Below are positions 3,951-10,494 of a stretch of 37,264 nucleotides of DNA, one piece after another. Where the stretch lies: IMG/VR virus record IMGVR_UViG_2778261068_000007, positions 1 through 37,264 of that record. One strand, given 5' to 3'. Origin of the DNA: a virus (lineage: Duplodnaviria; Heunggongvirae; Uroviricota; Caudoviricetes). The notes under the pieces were generated by a model. The model saw only the letters and a program-made list of their open reading frames with translations. It had not been told where the DNA came from and searched no databases. Position 1 is the first letter of the stretch; each line of letters begins with the position of its first letter. Position numbers and translations under genes: made by a program.

Positions 3951-4036
3951 CTGCGCAAATAAGACTCCAGGTTAAATAAGAAAATGTGAAAACAATCCGC
4001 ATTCGCGGAGGTATTCGCACACACCAAGGAGGCGTA

Positions 4037-4623: not shown

Positions 4624-4989
4624 ATGATTCTCGCCGAAGACTTTTTTGATTACCTGCTGAAAACCGAGCGCGATTTTGGTATTCGCGTTCTCGACCGCTA
4701 TGCAATGTATCTGAAATCACTGCCGGAACAGCAGCTCCCGGACGGCCAGATTGTTATTGACGGGCGCTACATGGTTGGTAGCTGCCAGGAGGATTACACA
4801 CTTTTCCGCATCGAAAGCGGCACGCCTTCCGTACTGGGTATTTACCAGCGAACTTCATCTCTGATTGCTGATGTAATTGCTGACAGCATTCGCATAACAC
4901 ACCGCTATGCCAGCACAGAGAGCACCATGCAGGAAATCCAGCGGCTGGCTACCGTCTGCCACAATGTACTGAGCGGCAGGGCGGAGTAG
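4624..4989 (+). CDS. Hypothetical protein upstream of the replication gene
   Basis: 121-aa ORF ending 6 nt before the A start; inverted repeat ctgctgccgg ... ccggcagca lies in the upstream gap. Confidence 0.45.
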   Translation: MILAEDFFDYLLKTERDFGIRVLDRYAMYLKSLPEQQLPDGQIVIDGRYMVGSCQEDYTLFRIESGTPSVLGIYQRTSSLIADVIADSIRITHRYASTESTMQEIQRLATVCHNVLSGRAE

Positions 4990-4994
4990 TCAGC

Positions 4995-7817
4995 GTGGCA
5001 ACGGAGTACATCAGAGACTGGCAACAACCACGCCATGCAGTCGGTCGCGAGGGAACGGGGGAGCCTGTCCGCCCCTCCCTTCTTTCTTCCTGGCTGGATG
5101 CCTACCGGGCAGAGAACGAGCGCCGCCAGGAAATGGCTGATGCGGCGTTCTCCGCTGCACCACTGGGCAATCTGATTAATAAAAGCCTGGACGCACAGGA
5201 AAAACAGGACAAAGCCATCACACTGGCAAGAGAAGCCAGAAAGCAGGCACGCGGTGCGGTGGATGAAGCCATGGCCTCGCTGCGTCTGCTGCCGTCCTAT
5301 CTGCGTGATCCGCTTATCCGCCATCTCTCTTTCCTGCGCAAAAAACAGGAATCTGGCCGCCAGAAAGGCAAAAATAGCTGGCAGGCTGAACGCTACGCGC
5401 GCGGAAACCTGCGCAAAATATTCGAACGTCTGGACTGCACCGACCGTCGCTGGCTGACTCCGGGTTATCGCTCCCTTGCCGGACGTGAACGTCTGGACGA
5501 TTTGCTGTACTTGCCACAGCTCAACAAGCACCAGATACAGACGCTGGCCGTCATGACAGCGGCAATGTTCAGCAGCACCTTCGAAAAACTCTGCGATGAC
5601 TTTGGCGCGACCGACGGCGAGCTGACCATGGATATAACGCTGAAGGCGTATCAGATGCTGGCCCGCATGGCGTTACATCTGCACACGGTGCCGCCGCATT
5701 ATGACGCACTGACAACAGACAAAGACCGGAAGAACGAACCGGACACGGAACTGCTGCCGGGTGCAATCCTCCGCCTGACCTGTGCGGACTGGTGGAAACG
5801 CAAATTGTGGCTTTTACGTTGCGAATGGAGAGAGGAACAACTCCGCGCTGCCTGTCTGGTTTCCAGAAAAACATCGCCCTATCTGAGTCAGGACGCATTA
5901 AGTGAATTTCGCGCACAGCGCGAGAAAACACGCGATTTCCTGAAAAGTTTCATGCTGGAAAATGAAGACGGGTTCACGATTGATCTCGAGACGGTGTATT
6001 ACGCGGGAGTAAGTAACCCGGTCCACCGTAAGGCAGAAATGATGGCCACCATGAAAGGGCTGGAACTTCTGGCCGAAGCCCGTGGCGACAAAGCGGTGTT
6101 TCTGACTGTCACCTGCCCGTCAAAATACCACGCAACAACGGAGAACGGTCATCCGAACCCCAAATGGAACGGGGCCACCATGCGCGACTCCAGCGATTAC
6201 CTGGTTAACACGTTTTTTGCGGCGGTCCGCAAAAAACTGAACCGCGACGGTCTGCGCTGGTATGGCATCCGCACGGTGGAGCCTCACCATGACGGCACCG
6301 TGCACTGGCATATGATGGTCTTTGCACACCCGGACGAGATTGAAACCATCGTGTCCCACGTCTGCGATATTGCCATTCAGGAAGACCGCCACGAGCTGGG
6401 CGATGACATAACTCCGCGTTTTAAGGCGGAGTACGTAGACGGCTCAAAAGGCACGCCAACCAGCTACATCGCCACCTACATCGGAAAGAACCTGGACAGC
6501 CGCGCCGTGGATGGCATCGACCCGAAAACGGGCAAGCCACGCGTTGACCACGAAACCGGAAAATCAATGGCAGAGAGCGTGGAACGCGCCATCGGCTGGG
6601 CGCGCCTTCACCGGGTCCGCCAGTTCCAGTTCTTTGGTATCCCTTCCCGTCAGGTGTGGCGTGAACTGCGTCGCCTTGCCAGCCAGATGGCACGCAACCC
6701 GGAAGGCCCGCAACGGCTGAAGGATGACGCAATGGACGCGGTTCTTGCTGCCGCTGATGCCGGATGTTTTGCCACCTACATAGAGAAACAGGGTGGCGTA
6801 CTTGTTCCACGCAAGGATTACCTGATTCGCACCGCCTACGACCTCGCAGAAGAGCTGAACGATTACGGCGAGCAAAGCGTACAGATTTACGGGATCTGGT
6901 CGCCACAAATCGGGGAATCTTCCCGCGTGTGCACGCACCCGGATAACTGGAAGCTGGTAAGACGTAAACCGGAAGCGGAAGACAGCGCCCGCGAAAATGG
7001 TTTTGACCTTCAGGGCGGCCCTGCCGCCCCTTGGACTCGTGGCAATAACTGTCCCCGTGTACAGGAAACGGACAACAACGGGACAGAACAGCCGGAAGAA
7101 CGGCCAGCACCGTGGCCGCAGCTTCCTGACGGCGTTGAAGTGAATGAATGGATGCGCTCACTGAAACGGCACGAACGCCGGGCGCTGATGCGTTCGCTGC
7201 GTGACAAACAGGCAAAAAACAGCAGTGATGAAATGCAGAGCTGGACACAGAGCCGCAAACAGCAGCGGCCTTTGCCTGATAACCACGAATTACTCGCTAA
7301 AGAATGGCGGGAGTCTGCCGAATCTCTCGGCCTGCATATCGGTGAACAACAGATGCTGCACCTGTTACGGGGCGGCAGTCTGTACGTTGACGGCAGCATC
7401 ATTGCGCCGCAGGGATATGAAATTGTACGTAAACCGGATACCCGACCGGACAGCCGAATCACGCGACTTTGGCAGCGCCTGAGTCGTAATCACAGCGTAA
7501 ACAGCACGGAAATCCGCCATAACCCGGTTTCCAGCTATCTGAAACAGCTCGGGGCATCAGACCCCGAAGCCGCCGCACGCCTGGCATCCACAATTCAGCA
7601 GGACCAGAACACCATGAAAACTCCCGTTACCGTGCTTTCTGACATGCTGCGCGCCATCCGTGACGCAGAGCACGCACAAAGATTCAATGAAACCACTGAA
7701 CGCGTCCGCCGCAAAGCAGATCTGTTGCAGGGTGGACTAACCAGTGAAAACAAAAAACAGACAAAAACGGGATTCACAAATCCCGTAAATGAGCAAAAAA
7801 CGCGCCGCGATATATGA
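4995..7817 (+). CDS. A: Rolling-circle replication initiator, P2 gpA-like
   Basis: 940-aa ORF with HWHMMVFAHPDE (HUH-type motif) and YHATTENGHPNPKWNG...TFFAAVRKKL...GLRWYGIRTVEPHHDGTVHWH; GTG start at 4995 with RBS ggag 8 nt upstream (alternative ATG at 5133); longer than remembered P2 A (about 760 aa). Confidence 0.9.
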   Translation: MATEYIRDWQQPRHAVGREGTGEPVRPSLLSSWLDAYRAENERRQEMADAAFSAAPLGNLINKSLDAQEKQDKAITLAREARKQARGAVDEAMASLRLLPSYLRDPLIRHLSFLRKKQESGRQKGKNSWQAERYARGNLRKIFERLDCTDRRWLTPGYRSLAGRERLDDLLYLPQLNKHQIQTLAVMTAAMFSSTFEKLCDDFGATDGELTMDITLKAYQMLARMALHLHTVPPHYDALTTDKDRKNEPDTELLPGAILRLTCADWWKRKLWLLRCEWREEQLRAACLVSRKTSPYLSQDALSEFRAQREKTRDFLKSFMLENEDGFTIDLETVYYAGVSNPVHRKAEMMATMKGLELLAEARGDKAVFLTVTCPSKYHATTENGHPNPKWNGATMRDSSDYLVNTFFAAVRKKLNRDGLRWYGIRTVEPHHDGTVHWHMMVFAHPDEIETIVSHVCDIAIQEDRHELGDDITPRFKAEYVDGSKGTPTSYIATYIGKNLDSRAVDGIDPKTGKPRVDHETGKSMAESVERAIGWARLHRVRQFQFFGIPSRQVWRELRRLASQMARNPEGPQRLKDDAMDAVLAAADAGCFATYIEKQGGVLVPRKDYLIRTAYDLAEELNDYGEQSVQIYGIWSPQIGESSRVCTHPDNWKLVRRKPEAEDSARENGFDLQGGPAAPWTRGNNCPRVQETDNNGTEQPEERPAPWPQLPDGVEVNEWMRSLKRHERRALMRSLRDKQAKNSSDEMQSWTQSRKQQRPLPDNHELLAKEWRESAESLGLHIGEQQMLHLLRGGSLYVDGSIIAPQGYEIVRKPDTRPDSRITRLWQRLSRNHSVNSTEIRHNPVSSYLKQLGASDPEAAARLASTIQQDQNTMKTPVTVLSDMLRAIRDAEHAQRFNETTERVRRKADLLQGGLTSENKKQTKTGFTNPVNEQKTRRDI

Positions 7818-7865
7818 AGCGCGCACAAAACAGGCAAAAGCGGGATTTAAAAATCCCGTAAACGA
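7762..7865. repeat. Two 31-bp direct repeats, each holding a 7-bp-stem hairpin (cgggatt-N4-aatcccg)
   Basis: caaaaacgggattcacaaatcccgtaaatga (7762-7792) and caaaagcgggatttaaaaatcccgtaaacga (7835-7865) bracket the A stop codon (7815-7817) and a GC-rich near-palindrome cgcgccgcgatatatgaagcgcgc. Confidence 0.6.
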
Positions 7866-7893
7866 TTAATTAATCAACATAAGGAAAATCGAC

Positions 7894-8853
7894 ATGAAAA
7901 TTTGCATCGACGACGGCTCCACCAACATCAAGCTGGCATGGACTGAGAACGGCGAACGCCGCAACGCCATCAGCCCGAACAGCTTCAAGTCGGAATGGTC
8001 TGCGCCGTTCGGTGGCACACAGCCCGCGAACTACATGCTTGATGGCGTGCGCTATGGTTTTGATCCGGTCAGCGATCGCTTTGTCCAGACGACCGACACG
8101 CAATACCAGTACAGCGATGTGAATGTCATTGCCATTCATCACGCGCTGGTCAAATCAGGTATCACACCACAGGAAGTGGACGTGGTTGTCACTCTGCCAC
8201 TGAGCGAGTATTTCGATACAAACGCACAGCCGGACATGGCCAACATCAACCGCAAAAAAGCGAATGTCCTGCGCCCTGTGGAGTACCAGAACGGTGAAGC
8301 ATTCACTATCCGCAACGTGCGGGTTATGCCTGAATCCATTCCGGCTGGCTTTAAGGCACTGGCTGACATGAGTCCGTTTGAATCCCTGCTGATTGTGGAT
8401 TTAGGCGGAACAACGCTGGATGTGGCAAAGGTTCAGGGGCAACTGGCAGGCATCAGCCAGGTGTTTTGCGATCCACACGTAGGCGTTTCCCTGATGGCTG
8501 ATGCCGTGCTGTCGGTGATGGCCACTAACGGTATGCGTACCAGTCACCACATCGCCAATACCATTATTGAGCACCGTCACGATGAAGCCTGGCTACGCCA
8601 GCACATTCACAATGACGCGCATTACAACAGCCTGATGGCGGTTATTCGTGAAAAGGAGGAGACACTAAAACAACGCGTGATCCGCGCACTCGCGGGCTTT
8701 TCGGGTTACGGGCGGGTGCTGGTTGTCGGTGGAGGAGCGGAGATTGTGGCACCCGCAGTCCGTGAAATCTATGGAGTCAATGCGAATTTCATCACAGACG
8801 GGGTGCCACAGTTTGCTCTGGTTAACGGTCTGTACGCTATGGATAAGGAGTAA
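7894..8853 (+). CDS. parM: Actin-like segregation ATPase, ParM/StbA family
   Basis: N-terminus MKICIDDGSTNIKLAW closely matches remembered R1 ParM (MLVFIDDGSTNIKLQW); further shared blocks ISPNSFK.EW, YSDVNV.A.HHAL, LPL.E, VDLGGTT; RBS aaggaaaa upstream. Confidence 0.8.
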   Translation: MKICIDDGSTNIKLAWTENGERRNAISPNSFKSEWSAPFGGTQPANYMLDGVRYGFDPVSDRFVQTTDTQYQYSDVNVIAIHHALVKSGITPQEVDVVVTLPLSEYFDTNAQPDMANINRKKANVLRPVEYQNGEAFTIRNVRVMPESIPAGFKALADMSPFESLLIVDLGGTTLDVAKVQGQLAGISQVFCDPHVGVSLMADAVLSVMATNGMRTSHHIANTIIEHRHDEAWLRQHIHNDAHYNSLMAVIREKEETLKQRVIRALAGFSGYGRVLVVGGGAEIVAPAVREIYGVNANFITDGVPQFALVNGLYAMDKE

Positions 8854-8859
8854 CCCTCC

Positions 8860-9171
8860 ATGGCGACATTAACCAGAAGAATAAGTTTCTATCTGAAGCC
8901 AGCCGCCGTCAAGAACGAAGGCAAAGCATGCGCCTGGCTGGACAGCCTTACACCAGAAGCCCGCAAAAGCGGCCAACGCGTGGCTTTTCTGGCCGGGCTG
9001 GCACTTCTGAAAATGAATCCGGCAGAGGCTTACCGACTGGCTGCATGGGCTGATGATGAGGCGTTATCAGTGACACAAACCAGGGCAGAACGCCACATGT
9101 TACAGCCAGCGCCCACCGCACAGATAACCAGTCAGATAGCTGGAAATATCCGGGCGTTATTTCCCGAATAA
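8860..9171 (+). CDS. parR: ParR/StbB-like centromere-binding adaptor
   Basis: 103 aa immediately downstream of parM with RBS aaggag; RRISFYLKP...AWLDSLTPEARKSGQRVAFLAGLALL...IRALFPE parallels remembered ParR (RTIAFKLNP...DTLDSIPQGERSRLNRAALTAGLALY...LRSLFPKE). Confidence 0.65.
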   Translation: MATLTRRISFYLKPAAVKNEGKACAWLDSLTPEARKSGQRVAFLAGLALLKMNPAEAYRLAAWADDEALSVTQTRAERHMLQPAPTAQITSQIAGNIRALFPE

Positions 9172-9234
9172 CACAACATCAGGGCGCATCCGCCCTGATG
9201 ACTTTAATCCGGGAACATAAACAAGGGGGACACA

Positions 9235-9576
9235 ATGCAACACATTGACAGAGAAAAAGCGCAGCGACTGATTGAGCGGATGGAAGCGCTGGCGAAAGAA
9301 GAAAATGTCAACATCCAAAAAATAGCAGAATGTGGCCAGATAGTTCTTCGTCGTGAAAAAGACATCAAGCAACTGATGTCTGGCGAAACCAGCAAAACAC
9401 GGATTCCAGGCGAGAAAACGATTTATTGTAGCTTCTGCAATAAATCCCAGTACGAAGTCACAAAGGTGATTGCCGGACCGTCTGTTTACATCTGCAATGA
9501 GTGCGTGGATTTGTGCAATGAAATTATCAGGAGAGAAGCGACTGACCATGAAGAAGCGCGGAGATGCAACGATTAA
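9235..9576 (+). CDS. ClpX N-terminal zinc-binding-domain (ZBD)-only protein
   Basis: C-terminal half [40 protein letters not shown] is near-identical in pattern to the remembered ClpX N-domain ([40 protein letters not shown]), including the C4 zinc ligands; no AAA+ module follows. Confidence 0.7.
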
Positions 9577-10214: not shown

Positions 10215-10494
10215 CAATGCACAATAGTGCACAAATTTGCACAATTTTTTTGAACAACTTTTTACCCTTCCGGCCCGCGTGGCGGCTGGATCCGTCAAGG
10301 ATCCGTGCATGCACAAAAAAACGCATTTTTTCTGCGCGCAGGTGACGGGGGAACAGCCCGCGTTTCAGGGGGTAAATAGCATTCCCTGAGCGATGTCGCA
10401 GCGACACAACAGAATGGCTGTATTTCTCACGCTGAGCGTGAAAAAGACGTAAGGGTTTTTGATTTGATGGGTTGAAAGGTAAGGCCGTCAAAAT

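Follow-up and report, generated by a model that had tools for sequence, protein, structure and literature searches.

The window analyzed here, a 37,264-nucleotide (nt) stretch of viral DNA (Caudoviricetes; IMG/VR record IMGVR_UViG_2778261068_000007), belongs to a P88-like prophage (genus Xuanwuvirus, family Peduoviridae) and between positions 4000 and 9500 is 92–95% identical in DNA sequence to phages P88, 520873, P884B11, and phiSM. Its gene A (4995–7817, plus strand), listed as an open reading frame (ORF) running from a GTG start codon to a TGA stop at 7815–7817, is predicted to encode a rolling-circle replication initiator of 940 amino acids (aa), and it is followed by two hairpin-forming repeats and by the partition genes parM and parR. 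An earlier, sequence-only reading had singled out positions 4995–7865, noting that A appeared to carry a long extension relative to its counterpart in phage P2; the right-hand coordinate of that region marks where the second repeat stops, beyond the end of the ORF at 7817.

Reading Frame and Start of Gene A

No start codon lies between the in-frame upstream stop and the GTG at 4995, and a Shine-Dalgarno sequence, GGAG (4983–4986, plus strand), can be read directly 8 nt before it. The homologous start position is occupied by ATG in P88, P884B11, and phiSM, and a motif located eight codons after the GTG, W9-x-x-P12-x-x-A15, is invariant in P2, 186, Fels-2, and P88. Together, these observations indicate that the start call is correct. 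A start further downstream would delete a conserved part of the protein, and hence the earlier suggestion that the extension may reflect a different true start was rejected. The ORF immediately upstream (4624–4989) has its stop 5 nt before the start of A, an arrangement that would suit translational coupling; according to the record of phage 186, translation of A in that phage requires that orf84, located upstream of it, be translated.

The replication protein of P88 has the same length of 940 aa and is 94.7% identical to the window A protein over its full length. A gene of 2823 nt is annotated at this position in P88, P884B11, and phiSM, and public data hold clusters of 940–946-aa proteins with thousands of member sequences; some database relatives of A are annotated at 910–916 aa. 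In the records of phages 520873 (NC_049344.1) and 503458 (NC_049341.1), gene A is annotated as two to four fragments with labels such as "DNA replication domain protein" and "nicking at origin of replication"; these split genes are probably the result of frameshift errors or are pseudogenes, and not other architectures.

Catalytic Core and Excess Length

Judged from its sequence, gene A is an ordinary P2-family HUH rolling-circle initiator of the P88-type gpA lineage, which has already been catalogued. The Pfam domain Phage_GPA (PF05840) forms the catalytic core at residues 179–503 (5529–6503, plus strand) and was matched over profile positions 1–321 of 321, with an E-value of 3.2e-128 and a score of 427.7 bits against a cut-off of 31.4. 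The HUH motif, H437-W-H439 (HHDGTVHWH; 6303–6311, plus strand), aligns with H399/H401 of P2 gpA, and the tyrosine pair Y491/Y495 (YIATYIGKN; 6465–6479, plus strand) aligns with Y450/Y454, which have a catalytic role in P2. The HUH histidines and both tyrosines are invariant across 14 homologues.

With its 940 aa, the window A protein is longer than P2 gpA (761 aa, 2286 nt; AAD03306.1), Fels-2 A (809 aa), and 186 A (694 aa). The length of about 760 aa that the sequence-only reading had given for P2 A was correct, and its observation of a longer protein was borne out by an excess of 179 aa. Nor is the extra length shared across the family, the extension being absent from P2, 186, and Fels-2. The excess over P2 does not, however, form the single extra block that had been envisaged; it is spread over the C-terminus, the N-terminal region, and small indels. 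In the gap map of a five-way alignment, 113 residues (828–940) lie opposite a C-terminal gap in P2, and some 59 residues near the N-terminus (22–42, 43–63, and 76–92) are absent from P2 and common to Fels-2. An 8-residue loop (508–515) and small indels are also extra, and 60 residues of P2 are missing from the window A protein, partly offsetting the excess.

The DNA identity profile and the P2 gap map delimit a variable N-terminal module of approximately residues 1–100 (4995–5294, plus strand), in which most of the ~59 residues without a P2 counterpart are located. Among the loci compared with the window, which are given by L numbers where they must be told apart, L011, L016, and L015 show an identity to it of 0.42–0.53 before ~5295, 0.75–0.93 from 5295, and 0.9–1.0 thereafter; one of two junctions in A is thus near 5295, at about residue 100. 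Two N-terminal types of the A module were seen, MATEYIRDWQQPRHAVGRE and MSEFAWSWNEPRPAIDP.

A Predicted Origin within Gene A

A 30-nt sequence downstream of the catalytic domain, GCCCCTTGGACTCGTGGCAATAACTGTCCC (7026–7055, plus strand), is the candidate core of the replication origin by homology to the P2 nick site and the 186 ori. The annotated nick site of P2, GCGCCTC/GGAGTCCTGTCAATAACTGT (AF063097, position 29892), aligns with window positions 7026–7055, as does the 186 ori; over the core, the window reads TTGGACTCGTGGCAATAACTGT and P2 reads TCGGAGTCCTGTCAATAACTGT. By this alignment, the nick would fall at or next to G7033. The core encodes residues ~678–687 of A (APWTRGNNCP), and its 30 nt are identical in ten loci (the window, P88, L015, L009, Fels-2, L011, L016, the Hafnia phage L010, L017, and L018), whereas the flanks diverge. 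This identity was seen despite A proteins that are themselves only ~42–60% identical. It had been proposed that the hairpins couple termination of A translation to the function of the origin. That proposal had to be abandoned, as the homologue of the origin is 700 nt upstream of the hairpins; homology places the origin within the gene, at 7026–7055.

The second junction in A is found at this same core. L009 is a 186/Fels-2-like phage with CI, CII, Fil, and Dam genes and a Fels-2-like left flank; its A gene is 35–78% identical to that of the window (in 60-nt bins) up to ~7034 and 100% identical from 7035. The A genes of L011 (a CP-933T-type locus) and L016 encode 830 and 879 aa, respectively, and are at least 90% identical to the window over the 600 nt before 7034. 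They part from it directly after ...AACTGTCCC, where identity drops from 1.00 to 0.68–0.72, and it is lower further downstream. The presence of junctions on both sides of the invariant origin core indicates that the tail of A is linked to the downstream cargo and not to the catalytic core.

The jump in identity to L009 at ~7035, from 0.38–0.52 to 1.00, introduces a post-origin C-terminal module of residues 688–940 (7056–7817, plus strand). The NNC motif is followed by 254 residues in the window, 135 in P2, 123 in Fels-2, and 77 in 186, the P88-type module being the longest among those compared. In P88-type phages, synonymous divergence at 7056–7382 (residues 688–796) is ~0.06, against 0.17–0.26 in the core and 0.23–0.29 just downstream; the segment nearest the origin could have undergone a recent sweep or recombination, or could be under an additional constraint in cis because it adjoins the origin.

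The C-Terminal Tail

AlphaFold2 modeling of the whole A protein with 14 sequences gave a mean predicted local distance difference test (pLDDT) score of 54, too poor for a fold search; a model of the tail only (residues 701–940) had a mean score of 67.6. Residues 761–815 (7275–7439, plus strand) are predicted to form a small helix-helix-beta-sheet domain with three strands (pLDDT 81–88), and this domain aligns with the C-termini of the A proteins of P2 ("LARGATVNYDGKKFTYP") and Fels-2 ("LLRGGSI"). The lineage-specific extension proper comprises residues 828–918 (7476–7750, plus strand), which lie opposite gaps in P2, 186, and Fels-2. In the tail model, residues 820–913 are predicted to be helical (pLDDT 57–74), with a long helix at 877–913, and residues 915–940 to be disordered (pLDDT <50). 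The sequence-only reading had described the extra sequence as low-complexity and basic. The first of these descriptions was wrong, the Shannon entropy being 4.03 bits for residues 797–940 against 4.15 bits for the whole A protein; the second holds in a mild form only (isoelectric point 10.05 and net charge +7 for 797–940).

No family of Pfam or NCBIfam covers the tail (NCBIfam has no match for A as a whole either), and a Foldseek search of the PDB with the tail model gave no match at E ≤ 0.001. Among PHROGs, the tail matches only phrog_6857 (E 4e-76) and phrog_91 (E 2.3e-10); both span the whole replication protein and so they indicate no independent function for the tail. An exhaustive HMMER search with residues 797–940 against 1.84 billion representatives returned 13 matches at E ≤ 0.001. 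Fragments or a partial copy of this protein type account for seven, and the other six are weak and partial (29–71% identity over 34–60 residues), two of them in repetitive proteins and none named for a function. A word-indexed protein search with the tail found near-identical fragments only and is uninformative on distant relatives. A search of the literature yielded nothing on the P88 A tail; only statements on the hotspot and partition system considered below were useful.

When one genome was scanned for each species, four records proved to have the tail segment, namely Escherichia albertii, Salmonella enterica, and contigs labelled as Vagococcus and Planococcaceae. The latter two (L123, Vagococcus sp.; L125, a Planococcaceae metagenome-assembled genome) hold 84–91% identical copies of the enterobacterial phage tail, and their Gram-positive labels are very likely the product of contamination or mis-binning.

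Selection on the tail was estimated as the ratio of nonsynonymous to synonymous divergence (dN/dS) by the Nei-Gojobori method against five P88-type tails (L001, L007, L008, L015, and L009). The ratio is 0.04–0.12 for the core (residues 179–687; L001, L007, L008, and L015 only), about 0.17 for residues 797–860, 0.22–0.52 for residues 861–922 (0.41 against the Hafnia phage), and about 1.2 for the last 18 codons, the last value coming from few sites. The gradient implies that residues 828–918 are a real, translated, and moderately constrained part of A, and that the final stretch is not. Given that P2 and 186 lack residues 828–918, this segment is presumably dispensable for the catalytic chemistry, and its role is presumably a non-catalytic, accessory one.

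The Cargo Hotspot and the Last 22 Codons of A

Rousset et al. (2022; PMC9122126) noted that roughly one in four P2-like phages of E. coli has a putative partition system in the gpA-gpQ hotspot. Two loci, L046 and L058, become similar to the window at 7750–7752 and remain so up to 9555 and 9172, respectively. Ahead of the repeats, L046 has a P2-type A (773 aa) and an ORF of 159 aa; in L058, the frame of a zinc-ribbon ORF (145 aa) continues into repeat 1. With L125, the P88-type tail is kept to ~7701 and is followed by unrelated minus-strand genes, with no parM-parR. Conserved DNA resumes at 10216–10218 in all three loci, and the cargo region therefore extends from ~7701/7751 to 10217. The minus-strand genes at the hotspot of L125 (463–3086 of that locus) are three ORFs of 269, 114, and 491 aa with no assigned function; they may constitute a defence system.

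Repeat 1 begins at codon 919 of A. As similarity in L046 and L058 sets in at 7750–7752, the last 22 codons of A (919–940; 7751–7814, plus strand), which are predicted to be disordered, are cassette DNA and form the left end of the partition cassette. The sequence-only reading was right that the end of A runs through the first repeat, but the overlap amounts to 22 codons and not to about 25. The way in which the frame ends here is variable. An A-run, AACAAAAAACAGACAAAAAC, lies just ahead of hairpin 1 (window 7750–7767; ~6744 in L009) and is 1 nt shorter in L009, where the frame shifts and the protein ends ...NKNRQKRDSQIP at a TAA past hairpin 1, 15 residues sooner. In the Hafnia phage, the stop of A falls in the hairpin loop, and the ORF of L058 ends with the same ...QKRDSQIP read-through as A. 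Because the cassette edge is found behind unrelated ORFs (L046 and L058), the frame and stop vary, and the last 18 codons are without purifying selection, the overlap of the A stop with repeat 1 is most likely incidental, a by-product of the landing site of the cassette.

The Partition Genes and the Hairpin Repeats

The cassette encodes ParM, an actin-like partition ATPase of 319 aa (7894–8853, plus strand; phrog_691, partition protein, E 2.7e-89), and a ParR/StbB-like partition adaptor of 103 aa (8860–9171, plus strand; phrog_2515, E 4.9e-55). The ParM homologues belong to Pfam StbA_N/ParM_N, and the window ParM itself shares 46–52% identity with plasmid ParM; the NCBIfam ParM model gave 21.8 bits, far under its cut-off of 417 bits. 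The ParR homologues belong to Pfam Plasmid_stab_B. Similarity to L058 stops at 9172, which marks the right-hand limit of the minimal cassette.

The two repeats were delineated by repeat and fold analysis and are putative ParR sites (parC). Repeat 1 (7751–7792) and repeat 2 (7824–7865) are direct repeats of 42 nt, 73 nt apart from start to start, with palindromes at 7767–7786 and 7840–7859; each would fold as an 8-bp stem with a 4-nt loop (−10.7 and −11.0 kcal/mol). Their exact core, GGGATTNNNNAATCCC, occurs in the window at these two sites only. The Hafnia phage, with an A protein 61% identical to that of the window, keeps GGGATT-N4-AATCCC as the core and the spacing of 73 nt but varies in the loop and outer stem. 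The hairpin-pair pattern was found in 103 viral contigs, with a P88-type tail ahead of the pair in 99 and ParM in 102.

Within the 143-bp non-coding left part of the minimal cassette, 7751–7792 and 7824–7865 are the only repeats. A type II partition locus needs a centromere in cis, and the minimal cassette of L058 (7750–9172) has only these non-coding repeats; hence, they are most likely the centromere/operator of parM-parR. The sequence-only reading had also entertained the idea that the hairpins couple A termination to centromere function. A centromere role is indeed likely from the position of the repeats in the cassette, but the coupling is not, given that the overlap with A is most likely incidental. 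Across 47 distinct sequences, no compensatory stem changes were found for variants such as GGGACT and AATCCT, the sequences being too similar for this to be decisive; the uncompensated changes are easier to reconcile with a palindrome bound by protein than with selection for an RNA structure. Downstream of the stems, the plus strand reads UAAAUGAG and UAAACGAU, neither with the U-run of an intrinsic terminator, which argues that the hairpins are not terminators for A on the A/parM strand.

The minimal mobile parM-parR cassette (7751–9171) has sharp borders and was met in three upstream contexts, namely the P88-type A tail, the 159-aa ORF of L046, and the zinc-ribbon ORF of L058. The cassettes of L032 and L126 encode a ParM ~97% identical to that of the window and a ParR only ~50% identical, with the divergence limited to the middle and C-terminal part of ParR; neither the N-terminal "PTRRISFYLKPA" nor the repeats have changed. 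Covariation of ParR with the repeats was uninformative, since these ~50%-identical variants keep both the N-terminal residues and the repeats. Beside parR, within the hotspot, a 113-aa ORF (9235–9576) has a motif like the ClpX-type zinc finger (CSFCNK...CNECV); its equivalent is annotated as ClpX-like in P88, and a zf-C4_ClpX ORF is found at that position in L016. L015 (NZ_CP148288.1; 34,461 bp, circular) is a complete P88-like genome with A and parM-parR that was deposited as a non-mobilizable E. coli "plasmid." The record could represent a prophage that was excised or exists as a plasmid, or it could have arisen in assembly; it bears on the idea of partition-aided maintenance as a plasmid.

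A Probable Mosaic Initiator and Its Alternatives

We consider it probable that these features belong to a single account, in which an initiator with an in-gene origin and a mosaic structure reads through its tail into a cassette that owns the hairpins. Gene A would be a three-part mosaic of a variable N-terminal module (residues ~1–100), a conserved core (~100–687), and a variable C-terminal module starting directly behind the origin core, and the A protein would nick the origin within its own coding sequence, at ~7026–7055. The P88-type module would add ~90 lineage-specific helical residues (828–918) after the domain shared with P2 (761–815). The A frame would then cross the left border of the gpA-gpQ hotspot and continue 22 codons into the parM-parR cassette, up to the first in-frame stop, such that the last 22 codons would be a disordered by-product. 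The two hairpin repeats would be those of the cassette, and not of A or the origin, and most likely serve as the ParR-bound centromere/operator.

The result is mainly one of annotation tidying: the length of 940 aa is genuine, the start is right, the predicted origin is in the gene and not at the hairpins, and the hairpins are part of a type of partition cassette already known in the gpA-gpQ hotspot. What is new is modest, namely that the left border of the hotspot lies within the A frame, so that each cargo swap would rewrite the C-terminus of the initiator, and that a second, deeper exchange junction maps, to the nucleotide, onto the invariant origin core.

Several observations weigh against this account. 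The co-occurrence of the tail with parM-parR could reflect function and not mere adjacency, and a dN/dS below 1 in residues 828–918 means that this segment serves some purpose. Most of the loci are closely related to one another, from E. coli, and represent few independent events. The centromere assignment derives from position and elimination only; the repeats upstream of plasmid ParM homologues (IncI-gamma/K1 and IncK2/Z) are unrelated, with no sequence likeness to plasmid parC regions, and the hairpins also resemble intrinsic terminators on the minus strand. Finally, confidence in the AlphaFold models is low to moderate (54 for the whole protein, 67.6 for the tail), and the dN/dS of the last 18 codons is based on very few substitutions.

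The first of these points underlies the proposal of a functional coupling, in which the tail (~828–918) evolved to join the origin-bound initiator to ParR/ParM, thereby connecting replication to segregation or to plasmid-like maintenance, and the overlap of the A stop with a ParR site is regulatory. The parM-parR genes follow A proteins of 940, 925, and 913 aa and not those of 879, 835, 830, and 761 aa; an A with the terminal segment and with parM-parR downstream is found in the window, L009, and the Hafnia phage. ParM is present in 79 of the 80 tail-selected loci that have downstream sequence, L125 being the exception, and the pairing is kept both in the divergent Hafnia phage and in the 186-like recombinant. 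The tail is under purifying selection, with the motif VTxLSDMLxAxRDxEH...KAxLL kept down to 42% identity. However, adjacency alone predicts co-occurrence: as the tail and parM-parR are adjacent and the loci closely related, linkage explains the pattern as well as function does. The tail of L125 without the cassette, and the cassettes of L046 and L058 without the tail and behind unrelated ORFs, demonstrate that each can exist alone, and the part of A that overlaps the repeats is not conserved as protein. Functional coupling is thus regarded as unlikely. Were the tail to contact ParR or ParM, a rolling-circle initiator would be tied directly to a segregation machine, as is rarely the case.

A related proposal, and one that we likewise hold to be improbable, extends this coupling to the junction at the origin. 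The origin would serve as the physical joint for exchange of the A tail together with the cargo through initiator-catalysed strand transfer in place of ordinary homologous recombination, and the tail would have co-evolved with parM-parR as a link between replication and segregation in aid of plasmid persistence. This would require A to start at the nick site of one genome and end at that of another during co-replication. The observed pattern of junctions would be expected both of homologous recombination inside the invariant core and of strand transfer by the initiator at the nick.

For the hairpins, the alternative to a centromere is a pair of tandem intrinsic terminators of leftward (minus-strand) transcription that shield A from antisense. 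Read on the minus strand, each consists of a 7–8-bp stem followed by a T-run, with folds of −10.8 and −11.6 kcal/mol; both were returned by the terminator scan, and the A-rich 5′ flank, which would supply the minus-strand U-tract, is conserved in the Hafnia phage. Nevertheless, no minus-strand gene reads into the hairpins, and a stronger terminator-like hairpin of the minus strand is located past parR, at 9200–9177. The 73-nt spacing and palindrome core are kept while the loop and outer stem vary, and the cis centromere that a type II partition locus requires would have to be sought in an L058 cassette whose only non-coding repeats are these. Terminators in place of a centromere are thus quite unlikely, and the two roles are not exclusive.

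The earlier suggestion of a fused domain found no support in the absence of a Pfam or NCBIfam family and of a PDB fold match over the tail, and a test for fusion with a downstream ORF failed. In the form of fusion tested here, the tail would be the remnant of an ORF of ~145 aa that is located downstream of A in relatives and became joined to A by a deletion. A loose pattern, "...Y.....K......[RH]KA.L," occurs in the C-terminal helices of such ORFs from L011, L018, and L046, where the A tail reads "RRKADLL," and BLASTP gave 42% identity over 19 residues. This match had an E-value of 0.17, though, and the profile-profile comparison with hhalign was not significant (probability 3.3%, P 0.013). 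Moreover, the helix register is off by one residue, and the exhaustive HMMER search revealed no stand-alone homologue that clearly matches the last 70 residues. A gene fusion of this kind is accordingly judged very unlikely.

That the length of A is an artefact of annotation, with a shorter protein made from a downstream start (e.g., M47) or an ORF extended by a sequencing frameshift, is extremely unlikely, for although the start codon is GTG, database relatives are annotated at 910–916 aa, and A is split into pieces in two related phage records, the W9/P12/A15 motif lies upstream of every alternative start, P88-type phages have ATG at the equivalent site, a good Shine-Dalgarno sequence is in place, the 2823-nt ORF is unbroken in independent genomes, and dN/dS remains below 1 as far as residue 922.

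Comparison with Known Systems

The mosaic initiator proposed here is most like the P88 gp16 "replication endonuclease" (YP_009113059.1) and the other Xuanwuvirus A proteins, which are alike in their 940 aa and, with P88, in 94.7% of residues. P88 also has the same neighbors as the window, with a DUF5405-like ORF upstream, parM and parR downstream, and the same two repeats. It differs in an ATG rather than GTG start and in a few substitutions; structurally there is no difference.

The A proteins of the Fels-2/PsP3 type (809 aa) are 42% identical to that of the window over residues 9–796, and they share both the N-terminal insert relative to P2 and the identical 30-nt origin core. In contrast, they are without residues ~832–932, and no parM-parR is found downstream. 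P2 gpA and 186 A resemble the window A protein in the Phage_GPA domain, the HUH motif, the tyrosine pair, and the in-gene origin just upstream of the NNC codons, as well as in the N-terminal W-x-x-P-x-x-A motif and the small C-terminal domain. Their identity to it is only ~31%, and the window protein has 113 extra C-terminal and ~59 extra N-terminal residues. In P2, the genes orf91, tin, and old are located downstream of A in place of parM-parR.

As in the gpA-gpQ hotspot of P2-like phages, the cargo of the window is situated between A and the portal gene (PMC9122126). The window differs from that description in that the left border falls within the 3′ end of the A ORF (7701–7751), with a deeper junction at the origin core.

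With the type II ParMRC loci of plasmids (R1 parMRC/R100 stbAB), the window shares the order repeats-parM-parR, a ParM of 46–52% identity, and a ParR of the Plasmid_stab_B family. In R1, parC is directly upstream of parM, as are the window repeats. Unlike the plasmid loci with their many short tandem iterons, the window has two 42-nt repeats with palindromic cores 73 nt apart, and its locus resides in the hotspot of an integrative prophage, where the first repeat is overlapped by coding sequence.

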